The position numbers and the translations under genes were made by a program. Source: Candidatus Sumerlaeia bacterium (lineage in GTDB: Bacteria; Sumerlaeota; Sumerlaeia; MVZB01). From it: DNA of 64,000 nucleotides. The notes under the pieces were generated by a model. That model saw only the letters and a list, made by a program, of their open reading frames with translations. It was not told where the DNA came from and ran no database searches. Every line of letters starts with the position of its first letter. Positions within the stretch are counted from its first letter, which is position 1. Of the stretch, positions 3,124 through 13,272 are shown in pieces. The DNA is taken from the NCBI GenBank assembly GCA_963580245.1, contig CAUZJO010000001.1, forward strand, positions 67,564 through 131,563. The letters are read 5' to 3'.

Positions 3124-3244
3124 CTCGGCTCCCGTCCTCGTCCTTCGTCCTCGGACTTTTCTGGATTCGATCGGGTGTTCCCAGACCGATGGCCTTTGTT
3201 TCGATTGAAGAATTCGAGGACGAAGGACGAGGACGGGAGCCGAG
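3124..3244. repeat. Large perfect inverted repeat: 30-bp arms (3124-3153 and 3215-3244) around a 61-nt loop, 3' of prfB.
   Basis: ctcggctcccgtcctcgtccttcgtcctcg … cgaggacgaaggacgaggacgggagccgag. A third half-site-like copy, tctcggctcccc, lies at 3310-3321. Confidence 0.8.
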
Positions 3245-3279
3245 TCTCCGACGCGCCATAGCACTTTGGCGACGGTGCG
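3244..3279. repeat. Copy A of a ~37-bp dispersed repeat (gtctccgacgcgccatagcactttggcgacggtgcg).
   Basis: It is ~92% identical to 12181-12217. It sits directly 3' of the big hairpin. Both copies put an identical '…VSDAP*' tail on overlapping ORFs. Confidence 0.75.
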
Positions 3280-3416
3280 AGCCGATCAGATCGGAACTCG
3301 GGGACGCTTCTCGGCTCCCCTTCATTGATACCGCGTTTACTGCGAAAACTGAATAACACCCCCGACATAGCCCTGTTCTGATTGCGCCTATAACTTCATG
3401 CGCGATTCCGCTAGGC

Positions 3417-6518: not shown

Positions 6519-7739
6519 ATGCCCCCCACCCCCCCCACCGATACCTTGCCCTATGCCAAAGACGGCCTGATCCGCCGCAGTTTCGGCCTGAAGTCCGAAA
6601 TCATGGAGGATCTGGACACCGACTATCACTCCGCCATCACCACGCGCATTAGGGAGAATGGAAACCGATGGGAGATGGGCGGCCTGCGCCTGCGGCTGGC
6701 TGCGGAGTTCGGCTTCTGCTACGGGGTCGATAAGGCCATCGACCTGTCCTACGAGACCCGCCGTCGCTTTCCGGACAAGCGGCTCTATCTGACCGGCGAG
6801 ATCATCCATAACCAGCGGGTCAACCGGCGTCTGTTGGAGATGGACTACCGGTTCCTCTCCGGCCAGTACGCCAAGGGTAGCGAGATCGACGAGATCCGGC
6901 CCGAGGACGTGGTCGTCCTTCCGGCCTTTGGGGTGGAGACCGGCCTTCTGCAACGACTGCGCGACATCGGTTGCATCATCGTCGACACCACCTGCGGCTC
7001 GGTCATGCATGTGTGGAAGCGGGTGGAACGCTACGCGCGCGAGGGCTTCACGTCGGTTATCCACGGCAAATGGTTCCACGAGGAGACCATCGCCACCTGT
7101 TCGCACGTCACCCAACATGAAGGGGGCCGCTACCTGGTCGTGCTCGACAAGGAGGAGGCCCGGCAAGTCTGCGATTTTCTGCGCAACGGCCAAGGCGCCC
7201 AGGGGCTGCAAGAGAAGTTCACGAAGGAAATCTCGGAGGGGTTTGATTTCACGCGGGACTTGGAAAAGATCGGCGTGGCGAACCAGACAACGATGCTTTC
7301 ATCGGAGTCGCTCGAGATCGGCGCCATGGTCCGCGAGGCGATGGCCGAGCGACGCGGCGAGGCCTACGCCGCCGAGAATTTCCGCTCCTTCGATACGATC
7401 TGCCATGCCACCCAGGACCGCCAGGACGCCGTGCTGGAGATGATGCGCGAGCCGCCCGACGTGATGATCGTGGTGGGCGGCCTTAACAGCTCCAACACCG
7501 GTCACCTGTGCGAGATCGCCTCCCAGCATTGCCCAACGTATTATATCGACGACGCCTCGCGGCTGCTTTCGCCTCGCGAGATCATGCATAAACCGCCCGA
7601 AGCCGACGCGGCGATGGTCACCAGCTCGGACTGGCTGCCCGAGTGCCGGCCGATTGAGATCGGCCTGACCGCCGGTGCCTCCACTCCCAATAAGCTCATC
7701 GGCGAGGTGGTTGAGCGCCTGGCCCAATGGGAGCTTTAA
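6519..7739 (+). CDS. ispH: 4-hydroxy-3-methylbut-2-enyl diphosphate reductase (IspH/LytB), the long plant/cyanobacterial-type form.
   Basis: Conserved blocks are FCYGVDKAI, IIHNQRV, VDTTCGSVMHVW, GVANQTTM and GGLNSSNTGHL. The length is 406 aa. Confidence 0.85.
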   Translation: MPPTPPTDTLPYAKDGLIRRSFGLKSEIMEDLDTDYHSAITTRIRENGNRWEMGGLRLRLAAEFGFCYGVDKAIDLSYETRRRFPDKRLYLTGEIIHNQRVNRRLLEMDYRFLSGQYAKGSEIDEIRPEDVVVLPAFGVETGLLQRLRDIGCIIVDTTCGSVMHVWKRVERYAREGFTSVIHGKWFHEETIATCSHVTQHEGGRYLVVLDKEEARQVCDFLRNGQGAQGLQEKFTKEISEGFDFTRDLEKIGVANQTTMLSSESLEIGAMVREAMAERRGEAYAAENFRSFDTICHATQDRQDAVLEMMREPPDVMIVVGGLNSSNTGHLCEIASQHCPTYYIDDASRLLSPREIMHKPPEADAAMVTSSDWLPECRPIEIGLTAGASTPNKLIGEVVERLAQWEL

Positions 7740-9004: not shown

Positions 9005-10570
9005 ATGGGGCACCCAATGGAGACAACGCTAAAACCGCACGTTCAGGTTCGCGGGGAATTCTGTCTGGAGACGCGGCCCAAGTCCTGTGGGGTGATTATC
9101 TTTGGGGCATCGGGCGACCTGACCGCCCGCAAACTGATCCCCTCGCTGTTCACCGTCTATTGCCGCAAGCTGCTGCCCAAGAAGTTCTTCGTGCTCGGCG
9201 CGGCGCGCAGCCCGATGAGCGACGAATCCTTCCGCGACGCGATGCGCGACGGGTTGATGCAGCACGTCAAGAACCCCGATCCCGATCAGATGCGCGAATT
9301 CCTGCGCCACTGCCATTACCATGCGGGCCATTATACCGAGCCGGACCTCTATCAGGAAATAGCCGGGCGGCTCCGCGAGCTCGACCAGAAGTTCGAAACC
9401 GGTGCCCGCCATCTTTTCTACCTGGCCACGCCGCCCAGCCTCTATGCGCCCATCGTCGAGCAGCTGGGGGAGGCCGGCCTCGTAAGTCAGACCGAGGAGG
9501 AAGACGGCGACTGGGCGCGCGTGATCATCGAAAAGCCCTTCGGTCATGATCTGGCCAGCGCGCTGGCGCTCGATCGGCAATTGCGCAAGAACCTGGCCGA
9601 GGACCAGATCTATCGCATCGATCATTACCTGGGTAAGGAGACGGTGCAGAACATCCTGATGTTCCGGTTCGCCAACTCGATCTTCGAGCCGATCTGGAAC
9701 GGGCAGTTCGTCGACCACGTGAAGATCACCGTGGCCGAATCGATCGGCGTCGGCCACCGGGCCGGTTACTTCGAGCAGGCCGGCGTGATACGCGACATGT
9801 TCCAGAACCACATGTTGCAGATGCTGGCGTTGGTCGCGATGGAACCGCCCGCGTCGTTCGACGCCGACCGCGTGCGCGATGAAAAGGTCAAGCTGCTGCG
9901 GGCGATCCGGCCGTTCGACTTCGAGAAGCTCGACGAGGTGTTCATCCGCGGCCAGTACGTCTCGGGCGAGCAGGACGGGGAACAGGTCACGGGTTATCGC
10001 GAAGAGGAAGGGGTCGCCCCCAACTCGCACATCGAGACCTACGCGGCGGTCAAGCTGCAAGTCGACAACTGGCGCTGGCAAGGGGTGCCGATCTACATGC
10101 GCTCGGGCAAGCGCCTGGCGCGGCGTTATAGCGAGATCGCGATCACGTTCAAACACATCCCACACTCGATGTTCAGCCCGCTCAAGCCCGCTGAGTTTCA
10201 TCCCAACGTGCTGGTGCTGAACGTGCAGCCCAACGAAGGGATCGCGTTGATCATGCAGGCCAAGAGCCCCGGGCCCAAGCTGTGCATGAGCACGCTCAAG
10301 ATGGACTTCCATTTCCACGATGTGTTCGATGAGAAGCCGGGCGATGCCTATGAGCGCCTGTTGCTCGACGGGATGCTCGGCGACCAGACGCTGTTCGTGC
10401 GTCACGACGACATGGTGGTGGCCTGGTCGCTGATCACGCCGATCCTCGAGAAGTGGGAAGCGGAAGGCTCCTACGGCCGCGTCTACCCCTACAAACCCGG
10501 CTCCTGGGGCCCCAAGGAGGCCGACGAGCTGCTCGATCGCGAGGGCCGGTATTGGATTAATCCGGTGTGA
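9005..10570 (+). CDS. zwf: Glucose-6-phosphate 1-dehydrogenase.
   Basis: The NADP-binding motif is IIFGASGDLTARKL and the catalytic motif is RIDHYLGKETVQN. The start is uncertain: ATG at 9005 or 9017, or the ORF-track ATG at 8873, which would add 44 non-conserved residues. Confidence 0.88.
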   Translation: MGHPMETTLKPHVQVRGEFCLETRPKSCGVIIFGASGDLTARKLIPSLFTVYCRKLLPKKFFVLGAARSPMSDESFRDAMRDGLMQHVKNPDPDQMREFLRHCHYHAGHYTEPDLYQEIAGRLRELDQKFETGARHLFYLATPPSLYAPIVEQLGEAGLVSQTEEEDGDWARVIIEKPFGHDLASALALDRQLRKNLAEDQIYRIDHYLGKETVQNILMFRFANSIFEPIWNGQFVDHVKITVAESIGVGHRAGYFEQAGVIRDMFQNHMLQMLALVAMEPPASFDADRVRDEKVKLLRAIRPFDFEKLDEVFIRGQYVSGEQDGEQVTGYREEEGVAPNSHIETYAAVKLQVDNWRWQGVPIYMRSGKRLARRYSEIAITFKHIPHSMFSPLKPAEFHPNVLVLNVQPNEGIALIMQAKSPGPKLCMSTLKMDFHFHDVFDEKPGDAYERLLLDGMLGDQTLFVRHDDMVVAWSLITPILEKWEAEGSYGRVYPYKPGSWGPKEADELLDREGRYWINPV

Positions 10571-10663
10571 GGACCGCTCTCGTATGGAAGATGCGGCGCG
10601 TCGGCGACTGAACCCTGAACCCTGGACCCTGACCCCCCCACCCCCCGCTTCCACGTCATCATC

Positions 10664-11509
10664 GTGCTCCACAACAGCGCGCGCTGGGTCGAGGGCTGTT
10701 TGCGGGCGGTCATGGCTCAGTCACCGGCGCCGGCGGAGGTCACGGTGCTCGACAACGCTTCGACCGATGACGGAGCCGAACGGGCACGGTGGAGTTTCCC
10801 GCGTGTTCGGGTATTGGAAAGCCGGGAGAACCTTGGGTTCGCCGGCGGGAATAATCGCGCGGCGCAAGCGGTGCAAGACGCCGACTATCTCTTGCTGCTC
10901 AACCCCGACACCGAGCCGGCCGCCGACTTGCTCGAGCGTTTGGCCGAAGCGTTTAAAAGCGACGAGAAAATCGGCGTGCTCGGTTGCAAGGTGATGGAAA
11001 CCGACGGAAAGACGATCCAGCACGTTGGCGTCCGGTTGCGCGGGAACGGTTTGCCAAGCCACATCGGTCAGGGCGAGCCCGATCGCGGGCAGTACTGCGG
11101 CGTTCATGACCGCGCGAGTGTTCTGGGGGCTGCGATGGCCGTGCGCACGCGGGCCTGGCGAGAATTGGGCGGCCTCGACGAGCGGTTTTGGCCGGCTTAT
11201 TACGAGGAGACCGATTTCTGTTTCCGCGCGCGGCGGGCGGGTTGGCGCGTGGCCGTGGCGTGCGAGGCGAGCGTCGTCCATTTCGATGCCTCGGCTGACC
11301 GCCGGACCGATTGGGGCCACCTCGAGATGTTTTTCCGCGGACGCGCCCGGTTTCTGCTCAAGCACTATCGCCCGCGCGACTGGCTCTTGCGCTACCTGCC
11401 CGACGAGTTGCGCTGGCTGCTTTATTGGGGCAGCAAAGGCATGCGCCGCGTGGCGCTGAGGACGCTGTGGGAATCGGGTTTCGGGTCTCGGGGTTTGGGT
11501 CCTGGGTAG
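10664..11509 (+). CDS. Family 2 glycosyltransferase (GT2). The 5' end is unresolved.
   Basis: GT2 signatures are VTVLDNASTDDG, the DxD-like LLLNPDTE, GVLGCKV and the C-terminal acceptor region. The first conserved beta-strand (RFHVIIVLHNS) extends upstream of the GTG at 10664. There it is separated from an ATG at 10584 by a 7C-A-6C tract, out of frame. Confidence 0.75.
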   Translation: MLHNSARWVEGCLRAVMAQSPAPAEVTVLDNASTDDGAERARWSFPRVRVLESRENLGFAGGNNRAAQAVQDADYLLLLNPDTEPAADLLERLAEAFKSDEKIGVLGCKVMETDGKTIQHVGVRLRGNGLPSHIGQGEPDRGQYCGVHDRASVLGAAMAVRTRAWRELGGLDERFWPAYYEETDFCFRARRAGWRVAVACEASVVHFDASADRRTDWGHLEMFFRGRARFLLKHYRPRDWLLRYLPDELRWLLYWGSKGMRRVALRTLWESGFGSRGLGPG

Positions 11510-11599
11510 GAATATCGGGATGGATATCGGTGAGGATTATTCCAGGGAAAGGGGCCTGTATGGTAAGCTCGGCGAATACGGTGAAACGAATTCGAAACG

Positions 11600-12268
11600 A
11601 TGAAGAACGATTTGAAGACACCCGACGCCCCGATTCATTCCCCCCAACAAATGGAGCCGAATGACGCAGATGAATCATCCATCCTGAACCCTTCCACCCG
11701 AACCCCGAAACCCGAACCCCGAAACCCGATCCACCTCGTCCTCCACGCCCCCCGCATCCCCCAAAACACCGGCCAGATCGCGCGCGGTTGCCTGGCGATG
11801 GGGTGTCGGTTGCATTTGATCAGGCCGCTTGGATTTCGGGTCGATGCGCCCGCGTTGCGGCGGGCGGCCGTTGGCCATCTGGAGCAGGTCGATCTGGAGG
11901 TTCACGCCGACGGCGAGGCGTTTTGGTCGGCGGCGCCGAACCTGGACCGGGTTTGGCTCGTGACCAAACATGGCCGGCTCGATTACGCCGAGGTCGCCTA
12001 TCAGCCGGGCGATTGGTTGATCTTCGGGAACGAGACCGAAGGGCTGCCGCCGGAGTGGCTCCAGCGGCACGCCGAGCGGACCGTGCGCATCCCGATGGTC
12101 AATCCCGCGGCCCGTTGCCTGAACCTGGCGACGGCGGCGGCGGTGGTGATGTTCGAGGCGTTGAGGCAGGTTGGGGGTCGGTCTCCGACGCGCCATAGCC
12201 GCTTTGGCGACGGAGCGGTTTCGGGGGGAAGGGTTCAGGGTTTGGACAGCGCGCCGGTTGACGAATGA
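11600..12268 (+). CDS. trmL: tRNA (cytidine/uridine-2'-O)-methyltransferase of the SpoU/TrmH class (TrmL-like).
   Basis: Motifs are IPQNTGQIARGC, LIFGNETEGLP and VRIPMV…RCLNLATAAAVVMFEALRQ. The N-terminus has a low-complexity extension containing a 2x14-bp tandem repeat. The C-terminal 30 aa read through dispersed repeat copy B. Confidence 0.75.
   Translation: MKNDLKTPDAPIHSPQQMEPNDADESSILNPSTRTPKPEPRNPIHLVLHAPRIPQNTGQIARGCLAMGCRLHLIRPLGFRVDAPALRRAAVGHLEQVDLEVHADGEAFWSAAPNLDRVWLVTKHGRLDYAEVAYQPGDWLIFGNETEGLPPEWLQRHAERTVRIPMVNPAARCLNLATAAAVVMFEALRQVGGRSPTRHSRFGDGAVSGGRVQGLDSAPVDE
12181..12217. repeat. Copy B of the ~37-bp dispersed repeat (gtctccgacgcgccatagccgctttggcgacggagcg).
   Basis: It matches 3244-3279 and lies inside the 3' end of the trmL ORF. 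Confidence 0.75.
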
Positions 12269-13272
12269 TGGCGAGACGCATCAGCGCGCATACTGGGTCA
12301 GCCGGGACGTGTTCCGAATCGGTCGGCCCCCGGCCTAGCGCGGCTGGCGCGAATTCGCAGCCGGCTGCGGCGGGTTTGGAGCCACGGGTTGCGGCAGTTA
12401 TTGTCAATTTTCGGCAACCGGAACTGACGCGCGAGGCCATCGACTCGATTTTTCGCTCCGAAGGGGTGAGCGTGTCGGTTTGCCTCATCGAGAACGCCGG
12501 CGATGGCCAATGGGCGCGGGAGATTTATGACAACGAGCCGAGAGTCGATATCATCGCCAATCCGGAAAACATCGGTTTCGGCGCCGCCTGTAACCAGGGA
12601 ATCGAGCGGGTGCTCGCCGAGGACAACGACTTCGTTTTTCTCCTCAACAACGACGCCACCGTCGACCCCCAAACCCTGACCCTTCTCGCCGCCTCCTCCG
12701 GCCCCCATTCCCAATCCACCTCCGCCCCCAAAATCCTCCTGCCCGACGGGCGGCTCTACGCGGCGGGGGGGGTGGTCGAATTGGGGCGGGCGCGGGCGCG
12801 CAATCGGGGGATTTATGAAACGGATCGGGGGCAGTTCGACCGGCGCGAGCCCGTCGATTTCGCCTCGGCGTGCGCATTGATAATCCCGCGACGCGCGCTG
12901 GAGGGAGGCATCCGGTTCCACGAGCCCTACTTCCTCTACTACGAAGACGCCGACCTCTGCCTGCAACTGCGCAAGGCCGGTTTCCCCATCATCTACGAGC
13001 CCCGCGCCCGAGTGGTGCACCACGAATCGGCCTCAACGCCCCAGAACCGGCGGACCGAGCTTCTCTACTACGAAACGCGAAACCGGATCATTCTGCTTTT
13101 CCGCCATGGTAAAGGCGGGGAGAAAGCCGTGGGATGCGTCTACGTGACGTGTGTGGTGGTGGTTAAGGTGTTTAGCTTGACGCTCCGAGGCCGGTTCGGG
13201 GCATCGTGCGCTTTGTTGGGAGGGCTGATTGATGGCCTGCGAGGTCGCGCCGGCCGAAGGCCTTTGGAATAA
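12265..13272 (+). CDS. Family 2 glycosyltransferase (GT2, rhamnosyl/WcaA-like). The start is uncertain.
   Basis: Signatures are VAAVIVNFRQPELTREAIDS, the DxD-like FLLNNDATVD and IIANPENIGFGAACNQG. The 40-aa N-terminal lead is not conserved. The ATGA at 12265 overlaps the trmL stop. Confidence 0.7.
   Translation: MMARRISAHTGSAGTCSESVGPRPSAAGANSQPAAAGLEPRVAAVIVNFRQPELTREAIDSIFRSEGVSVSVCLIENAGDGQWAREIYDNEPRVDIIANPENIGFGAACNQGIERVLAEDNDFVFLLNNDATVDPQTLTLLAASSGPHSQSTSAPKILLPDGRLYAAGGVVELGRARARNRGIYETDRGQFDRREPVDFASACALIIPRRALEGGIRFHEPYFLYYEDADLCLQLRKAGFPIIYEPRARVVHHESASTPQNRRTELLYYETRNRIILLFRHGKGGEKAVGCVYVTCVVVVKVFSLTLRGRFGASCALLGGLIDGLRGRAGRRPLE

Follow-up and report, generated by a model that had tools for sequence, protein, structure and literature searches.

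The described systems closest to the gene start considered here are the simple sequence repeat (SSR) contingency loci of glycosyltransferases, with the poly-G/C tracts of Campylobacter and Neisseria, the lic and lgtC tetranucleotides of Haemophilus influenzae, and the heptanucleotides of hmw1A and hmw2A. Small dispersed repeats offer a second comparison, among them the Rickettsia palindromic elements (RPEs), which lie in frame within open reading frames (ORFs), REP/BIME sequences, Correia/NEMIS and other miniature inverted-repeat transposable elements (MITEs), and the heptanucleotide STRR repeats of cyanobacteria. Permissive screens for phase variation work with mononucleotide tracts of more than 8 and heptanucleotide repeats of more than 2 units (PMC2651432). 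The locus in question is the 5' end of a gene for a family 2 glycosyltransferase (GT2) in a 64,000-nucleotide stretch of a Candidatus Sumerlaeia bacterium (contig CAUZJO010000001.1), referred to as the window, where a C7-A-C6 tract lies between an upstream ATG at 10584 and the body of the GT2 frame. The original prediction took this tract for a candidate slipped-strand ON/OFF switch of a surface-glycan glycosyltransferase, and named a sequencing indel and a CTG start at 10622 as alternatives.

The tract does exist, yet it forms the end of an array of 7-base repeats and is not an isolated homopolymer. The locus belongs to known kinds, being a gene start remodelled by repeats, with either a non-canonical start codon or a frame that the repeat has broken. 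The reading that we favour, tentatively and with rather less than even confidence, is that a lineage-specific repeat remodelled the 5' end of the gene and that translation starts at CTG 10622; this alternative, which the prediction had also named, now ranks first. The argument depends on the only close relative (L015), from a Mizunami groundwater metagenome, which has 87% amino acid identity in the GT2; a scan of genome contigs for further close relatives gave only matches at 52% identity or less. Coordinates are collected in Table 1.

The frame break and the enzyme downstream of it

The ATG at 10584 has a Shine-Dalgarno-like leader, whose duplex with the anti-Shine-Dalgarno sequence is -5.9 kcal/mol, where the background has a median of -2.8. 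From this ATG to GTG 10664, the first canonical start in the GT2 frame, the distance is 80 nt (mod 3 = 2), so one added base joins the two frames; the break of one base that had been proposed between the ATG and the GT2 body is thus borne out. Between the TGA at 10616 and GTG 10664 there is no in-frame ATG, GTG or TTG, again as proposed, although the frame also contains ATC codons, at 10658 and 10661. In simulation, one additional C in either run (C7 to C8 or C6 to C7) joins the ATG leader to the GT2 in the window, the second change giving the fused product MEDAARRRLNPEPWTLTPPPPRFHVIIV..., so the claim that a 1-nt change in the C tract would fuse the frames holds in this genome. Across the tract the GT2 frame translates as TLDPDPPTPRFHVIIVLHNS; the meeting point of the frames had been placed correctly at the C tract, but the peptide given for the GT2 frame, PPRFHV, had dropped two residues. 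The window has two occurrences of the C6-N-C6 motif where 0.07 would be expected, and two of the four-unit heptamer pattern where the expectation is 0.00, so these motifs are not chance. Runs of at least six C or G (22 C, 24 G) are not over-represented in the window, by a rough estimate from base composition.

The product of the GT2 frame matches Pfam Glycos_transf_2 (PF00535) at 67 bits against a cut-off of 23.3 (E 2.5e-18) and PF13641 at 50.1 bits against a cut-off of 27. In an AlphaFold model built on 24 sequences (pLDDT 93.1, pTM 0.91), DSSP places beta-1 at residues 11-17 (FHVIIVL), alpha-1 at 21-32 and beta-2 at 40-46, and Foldseek matches the model with probability 1.00 to GalNAc-T2, GlfT2 and RmlT. 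Among the acidic residues, D187, E196 and D199 are invariant in the 24 sequences and D45/N46 nearly so. Judged by its predicted fold, the product is a bona fide GT2/GT-A glycosyltransferase. It needs beta-1, and with beta-1 at residues 11-17 and the PF00535 match beginning at V13, the first strand is encoded upstream of any canonical in-frame start, as had been noticed. A role in surface glycans is not established, the enzyme being a soluble GT-A in a conserved triad with trmL. This triad of GT2, TrmL-like SpoU methyltransferase and second GT2 (10619-13272) is kept across the Sumerlaeota relatives, in L015 and in the more distant L017, L018 and L021; L020 has another gene order.

Several starts further downstream were rejected. 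GTG 10664 cuts into beta-1, most of which would be lost, and has no Shine-Dalgarno match (+1.2 kcal/mol). ATG 10712 would remove beta-1 and alpha-1, and its Met is not conserved in orthologs. GTG 10745, used in the public gene calls, is preceded by a strong GGAGG (-10.2 kcal/mol); a start there loses beta-1, alpha-1 and half of beta-2, and the codon is GTA in the relative. The public call for the relative, of 273 amino acids (P0002), begins at position 482 of L015, at an internal, non-conserved codon, and likewise lacks beta-1. These public calls, of 254 and 273 amino acids, are truncated annotation artefacts. The 136-codon ORF that runs from ATG 10584 was also rejected as a real overlapping gene: it has only 13 amino acids in the relative, and its sole Pfam match is below the cut-off and meaningless.

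Between window and relative the GT2 has no internal stops or frameshifts, and its ratio of nonsynonymous to synonymous divergence (dN/dS) is 0.33, from 44 nonsynonymous changes over 668 sites and 40 synonymous changes over 220 sites; the neighbouring trmL and second GT2 give 0.42 and 0.40. On this pattern of substitutions the GT2 gene is under purifying selection. The same figures bear on the proposal that a heptamer duplication recently and, in effect, irreversibly inactivated the gene, so that both lineages would carry a pseudogene at an early stage. In its favour, canonical in-frame starts are missing from both genomes, gene callers produce nothing but the truncated products, and a dN/dS of 0.33 is not especially low and mostly reflects the time before any recent inactivation. 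Yet the 44:40 ratio of nonsynonymous to synonymous changes is far below the neutral expectation of about 3:1, the neighbouring genes stand at the same dN/dS, and 296 codons are open in both genomes although the repeat-unit order that they share (see below) puts the frame break before their split. We regard inactivation as quite unlikely.

Synonymous divergence (dS) from the relative is a mosaic along the gene, with 0.40 in the middle third of the GT2 (10920-11180), 0.11-0.16 in the first and last thirds, and 0.09 for the tail of zwf, which suggests recombination with a divergent allele.

An assembly or consensus error, with a true C8 or C7-A-C7 and a gene that simply starts at ATG 10584, would be the plainest account of the break: a single extra C gives a clean ORF, and homopolymer miscounts do occur, especially in long-read polishing. 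A separate short-read MEGAHIT assembly (L016), independently named, nevertheless matches the window without a difference over 6.7 kb, tract included, although it may stem from the same reads. The NCBI and JGI gene calls agree on the downstream sequence, and the relative, from another sample, is out of frame too, in a different register and by way of a 7-nt unit and not a homopolymer. The sequencing indel offered as an alternative explanation is accordingly highly improbable.

The repeat array and the choice of start codon

Tandem Repeats Finder (TRF) reports a period-7 array, CTGAACC x 4.1, at 10608-10636, which abuts and partly overlaps the C tract. The units adjoining C7-A-C6 read AACCCTG AACCCTG GACCCTG, with a CTG in every unit; in the relative, TRF merges heptamer array and C tract into a single period-14 array (385-413). 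Both genomes have the order zwf-GT2, and the leader at 10559-10617, with its Shine-Dalgarno sequence and ATG, is 100% identical between them. At the tract, the relative has one 7-nt unit fewer (2 against 3) and a C/A substitution, AAC6 for AC7, and its ATG lies 73 nt from the GT2 frame instead of 80. Both states are out of frame, and the C runs differ by substitution only. The ATG frame of the relative has 13 codons, MEDAARRRLNPGP followed by a stop, and ends CCC TGA upstream of the C run, so that no change in C-run length can fuse the frames there. Kept in both genomes is the opening of the GT2 frame, TGA ACC CTG GAC CCT GA[C/A] CCC CCC ACC CCC CGC TTC CAC GTC, and an alignment is possible in which the 7-nt indel precedes it.

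The order of an A-unit followed by a G-unit (AACCCTG GACCCTG) is common to both genomes and, because it is shared, suggests that the out-of-frame state is ancestral and predates their split. Five other indels in the operon, of 48, 57, 21, 75 and 36 nt, are all multiples of 3. The 5' indel is the only one that is not, and the 5' stretch therefore behaves as if outside a constrained reading frame.

A poly-C switch as the mechanism is not supported by this comparison. What separates the genomes is the 7-nt unit and a substitution, not the length of a C run, and C7 is shorter than the mononucleotide threshold of permissive screens, more than 8 (PMC2651432). The tract encodes PPTP in the GT2 frame, and PPTP is also found in the N-terminus of an ortholog at 70% identity, MPPTPSRSFHV. 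The same kind of tract, C6-A-C8, stands in frame directly after the ATG of the essential gene ispH (NF009911, 494 bits), where positions 6519-6539 read ATG CCC CCC ACC CCC CCC ACC (MPPTPPT). A further tract of the sort that the prediction had proposed looking for, G8 in the second GT2 (12765-12772), corresponds to GGGGGGCT of the same length in the relative, a substitution with no change in length. The comparison of orthologs that had been suggested as a check thus finds the relative out of frame too, but C-run length is not what varies, and distant orthologs have a plain ATG.

Those orthologs, at 44-70% identity, all begin with ATG and a leader of about 3-30 residues (mostly 3-15), followed by a strand of the form [RS][FILV][HQ]-hhhV. 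L017 opens with ATG CCC CCG ACC CCC TCC CGC (MPPTPSR) and L018 with ATG AAC CCG AGC CCG ACA CCC CGC (MNPSPTPR), where the window has CTG GAC CCT GAC CCC CCC ACC CCC CGC. MAFFT places Met1 of 23 orthologs in the column of the Leu encoded by CTG 10622. This codon is in frame, upstream of the domain, kept in the relative and aligned with the start of the orthologs, and its product MDPDPPTPRFHV matches their leaders, which are similarly short. The ATG at 10584 stands in different wrong frames in the two genomes, and CTG is therefore the only route that works in both, and also the only one that they have in common with their presumed ancestor. In the distant relatives the gene upstream of the GT2 is a divergent rotamase (in L020, S30AE/CSD) and not zwf, so the 5' end of the GT2 in the window lineage is a synteny breakpoint.

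The favoured sequence of events would then be as follows. A partial copy of an element core, with a C-rich period-7 array of which C7-A-C6 is the tail, would have remodelled the 5' end at the synteny breakpoint, putting zwf directly upstream and leaving the gene without a canonical in-frame start. Recombination of an element copy ending in '...GGAGACYGAAACCC' with a native start 'ATGAACCC...' may have swapped the ATG for CTG and brought zwf upstream in the same event. The enzyme would be translated, probably in small amounts, from CTG 10622, which is in the GT2 frame just 3' of the TGA at 10616 and at the position of the orthologs' ATG, to give M-DPDPPTPRFHVIIV.... The C runs would merely encode the Pro-Pro-Thr-Pro of a short disordered leader, and the tract would have no role as a dedicated poly-C switch. 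The Shine-Dalgarno sequence and ATG 10584 would be decoupled from the gene, yielding a nonsense product of 136 amino acids in the window and a 13-amino-acid peptide in the relative. We infer both the use of CTG and the recombination history from the arrangement just described.

Several points weigh against this reading. The duplex with the anti-Shine-Dalgarno sequence upstream of CTG 10622 is only -2.1 kcal/mol, which is no Shine-Dalgarno match; ispH, trmL and the second GT2, clear genes of the same window, have none either, so its lack is not disqualifying. CTG is a poor bacterial start codon, typically giving about 1% or less of the activity of ATG in Escherichia coli, and initiation at CTG in this particular organism is something that we infer from sequence. 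The leader at 10559-10617 is perfectly conserved whereas the spacer between GT2 and trmL is only about 70-78% identical, which hints that ATG 10584 is used for something; since a single unit would bring it into frame, it may be the true start from time to time, or may once have been. The databases searched hold only two genomes of the sub-lineage.

These last points lead to a contingency locus caught in the OFF state, in which ATG 10584 is the real start, slippage of the heptamer (in the window also of the C run) toggles the GT2, and both populations are mostly OFF. Much of the anatomy has the expected form: a repeat whose unit is not a multiple of 3, at 10608-10636, lies together with C7-A-C6 between ATG 10584 and the GT2 body, and the number of units differs between the relatives. 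In simulation, setting the array to a single unit or to four links the ATG to the GT2 frame in either genome and introduces no stop, the single unit giving MEDAARRRLNP[D/E]PPTPRFHV in both; in the window the gain of one C restores the frame as well. The perfectly conserved leader would be explained, an intact ORF under selection fits a gene that is periodically ON, and the other heptamer arrays of the operon are hot-spots for indels. The G-rich strand of the array has at least five G-runs and is prone to form G-quadruplexes, which might promote slippage, and heptanucleotide repeats of at least 3 units have been accepted as candidates in screens of H. influenzae (PMC2651432).

Hypermutable length, however, is not seen: C7 and C6 both fall short of the mononucleotide limit of more than 8, and the array has imperfect units, two in the relative and three in the window, three being barely above the heptamer limit of more than 2. 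ON states occur in simulation only: no in-frame variant was found among the closest database proteins (5.8 billion proteins searched), and two scans of metagenome contigs, with degenerate codons for RFHVIIVLHN and with the 22-nt leader, gave no match in a collection that evidently lacks these samples (the JGI contig of P0005 was missed). The C-run route is impossible in the relative, a similar C tract is in frame in ispH, the indels at all the other arrays are in-frame multiples of 3, so that arrays are not generally switches, and the shared unit order suggests a stable out-of-frame state of ancestral origin. The locus works like an SSR contingency gene but does not qualify as one, and we hold a slippage switch to be possible but doubtful.

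The conserved leader would also suit recoding from ATG 10584, by a -1 slip on C_CCC_CCA (10634-10640) in the window, perhaps with stalling on Pro-Pro-Pro-Pro, and by a +1 shift at CCC_UGA in the relative. Read in the ATG frame, the window site is in form a perfect X_XXY_YYZ heptamer, right at the -1 entry to the GT2 frame, and the ATG frame of the relative ends CCC TGA A, where ribosomes shifting by +1 would read CCU GAA in the GT2 frame. CCC_UGA is especially prone to +1 shifts, generally of 2% or less and of 15% in pheL (PMC3082878). Two mechanisms in opposite directions would, however, be needed in two close relatives, at different codons, and the distant orthologs begin with a plain ATG. 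No classical -1 stimulator was found in the fold of 10641-10760 (z +1.17, with 185 of 200 shuffled sequences as stable or more so), and no Rfam element is present, with zero matches across the 64 kb. All-C heptamers are not known as efficient -1 sites in bacteria, and recoding is very unlikely.

Repeat elements across the operon

Coming back to the proposed start at CTG 10622, the array there is one of several in the operon, and it adjoins part of a dispersed repeat that has colonised GT2-trmL-GT2. The survey for this repeat covered the 64 kb of the window and 6.3 kb of the relative. Its core, of about 36 nt, is GCTCCGTCGCCAAAGCGGCTATGGCGCGTCGGAGAC; full copies are present at four places, each with short tandem arrays alongside, and the nhmmer E values for the copies in both genomes range from 1e-9 to 5e-17. 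The 17-nt right end of the core recurs with zero mismatches at 10595-10611 and at 12178-12194 on the minus strand, the chance expectation being 0.18 at up to 2 mismatches. An alignment of the left half of the core with the GT2 leader is suggestive, but nhmmer backs the right end only (E 0.23), and a partial copy is what is claimed. With several dispersed copies and presence/absence polymorphism at orthologous sites, the core looks like a small MITE-, REP- or RPE-like element.

Table 1. Positions of the features discussed, in window coordinates except where the relative (L015) is named
Feature	Position	Strand	Remarks
Shine-Dalgarno-like GAGGA	10569-10573	+	overlaps zwf stop TGA 10568-10570
Upstream ATG, out of frame with GT2	10584-10586	+	frame 0
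Frame-0 ORF from ATG 10584, 136 amino acids	10584-10994	+	overlaps GT2 out of frame
17-nt exact match GGCGCGTCGGCGACTGA to right end of core	10595-10611	+	partial copy
C-rich period-7 array, CTGAACC CTGAACC CTGGACC CTGACCC..., running into C7-A-C6	10608-10646	+
TGA closing the GT2 frame upstream	10616-10618	+	kept in L015
GT2 reading frame, 296 codons and stop	10619-11509	+	Pfam, predicted structure, dN/dS
In-frame CTG, candidate non-canonical start	10622-10624	+	product M-DPDPPTPRFHVIIV...
C7-A-C6 tract	C7 10633-10639, A 10640, C6 10641-10646	+
Beta-1 strand FHVIIVL	10649-10669	+	DSSP on model; present in 23 of 23 orthologs
GTG, first canonical in-frame start	10664-10666	+	residue 16; rejected as true start
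GTG of public gene calls	10745-10747	+	residue 43; 254-amino-acid P0001, P0121 (NCBI, JGI)
G-rich heptamer array, GT2 C-terminal tail GFGSRGLGPG and stop	11469-11506 (TRF 11474-11500)	+	left inverted arm
C-rich heptamer array in TrmL N-terminal extension NPSTRTPKPEPRNP	11689-11727 (TRF 11696-11729)	+	in frame; right inverted arm
Full core (12171-12234) and heptamer array (12217-12245)	12171-12245	-	TrmL C-terminal tail; nhmmer E 4.7e-16
Core copy, intergenic	3236-3291	-	nhmmer E 1.2e-13
Core copy in L015	2655-2718	+	within 111-nt in-frame insertion in second GT2
Core copy in L015	2011-2109	-	full copy

The arrays at the 3' end of the GT2 and the 5' end of trmL form an inverted repeat of 32 nt with 84% complementarity (right arm 11696-11727), and the 48-nt indel against the relative falls in the G-rich array at the GT2 end. 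A stem is predicted in the RNA over this junction, with z -3.84 for 11460-11740 and z -8.15 for the equivalent in the relative. The spacer between GT2 and trmL is about 220 nt in the window lineage against 0-25 nt in L017, L018 and L021, where the genes are adjacent, and TrmL has 222-241 amino acids against 152-164 in the more distant relatives. The CCC/GGG-type arrays and the cores are absent from L017, L018, L020, L021 and L001.

Side by side, the two genomes have at this junction (window 11469-11727; L015 1239-1547) an insert of about 200-260 nt with inverted heptamer arrays at its ends, which contains the trmL start codon and a 43-amino-acid N-terminal extension. At 2630-2740 of the relative, corresponding to about 12702-12715 in the window, a translated in-frame insertion of 111 nt (75 + 36 nt) lies in the second GT2 and is lacking in the window; it consists of a heptamer array, a core and another heptamer array. 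Beside the intergenic core copy of the window there is a perfect 30-nt inverted repeat (3124-3153/3215-3244) of hexamer arrays, CGTCCT/AGGACG, with a 61-nt loop. The GT2 leader at 10595-10632 recurs in inverted orientation at the 3' end of trmL (12174-12242), 1.56 kb away, and the pair encloses GT2 and trmL; an invertible segment between them was considered, but its inversion would give no sensible fusion.

A bolder version of the contingency proposal would make the arms of the element a true switch of the first glycosyltransferase. The core, with its G3N4/C3N4 heptamer arms, would have colonised every gene boundary of GT2-trmL-GT2, giving rise to new termini, in-frame insertions and stems across the junctions. 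We think this unlikely; if it were true, a mobile repeat would drive SSR phase variation in a bacterium that lives freely in groundwater and belongs to an uncultivated phylum.

Comparison with known systems

The truncated public annotations illustrate how gene callers fail in metagenome-assembled genomes when short repeats sit at the gene ends. If CTG is used, the gene would be a clear natural case of dependence on a non-canonical start after repeat-mediated remodelling; if instead the heptamer array toggles it, repeat-mediated phase variation of glycosyltransferases would extend from host-associated pathogens to a subsurface bacterium of an uncultivated phylum.

Like the SSR contingency loci, the gene has a repeat that is not a multiple of 3, and C runs, between a start codon and the glycosyltransferase domain; the number of units varies between relatives and alters the frame, and simulated gain or loss toggles the full-length product (PMC2651432). 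Unlike them, it has 2-3 imperfect units and a C7, and neither an ON allele nor variation within a population was seen. Changes in the C run cannot restore the frame in the relative, an in-frame CTG offers another way to the protein, and the host is an uncultivated environmental organism.

The resemblance to bacterial CTG initiation (translation table 11) lies in an in-frame CTG just upstream of the domain, kept in the relative and at the position of the orthologs' ATG. It differs from simple CTG starts in having no Shine-Dalgarno sequence, and in that the CTG is made by or within a repeat unit and not by a point change from ATG. The relative also recalls the shifty CCC_UGA stops of E. coli pheL, the Listeria phage tail genes and antizyme, and prfB-type recoding, in that it has CCC_UGA at the entry to the GT2 frame. 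In contrast to those cases, the window has no stop there and needs a -1 shift, no stimulator is found, and the site is not conserved.

The element itself differs from the named repeat families in that only a handful of copies is visible, clustered in one operon, that it has no Rfam similarity, and that its arms are heptamer microsatellite arrays of the G3N4 type and not fixed terminal inverted repeats. What it shares with the RPE, REP, MITE and STRR repeats is a core of about 36 nt with tandem arrays at four or more sites, presence/absence polymorphism, the supply of N- and C-terminal extensions, and inverted pairs with strong predicted stems. The in-frame insertions and donated termini resemble those of the Rickettsia palindromic elements, and it is this element that is the more unusual feature of the locus.

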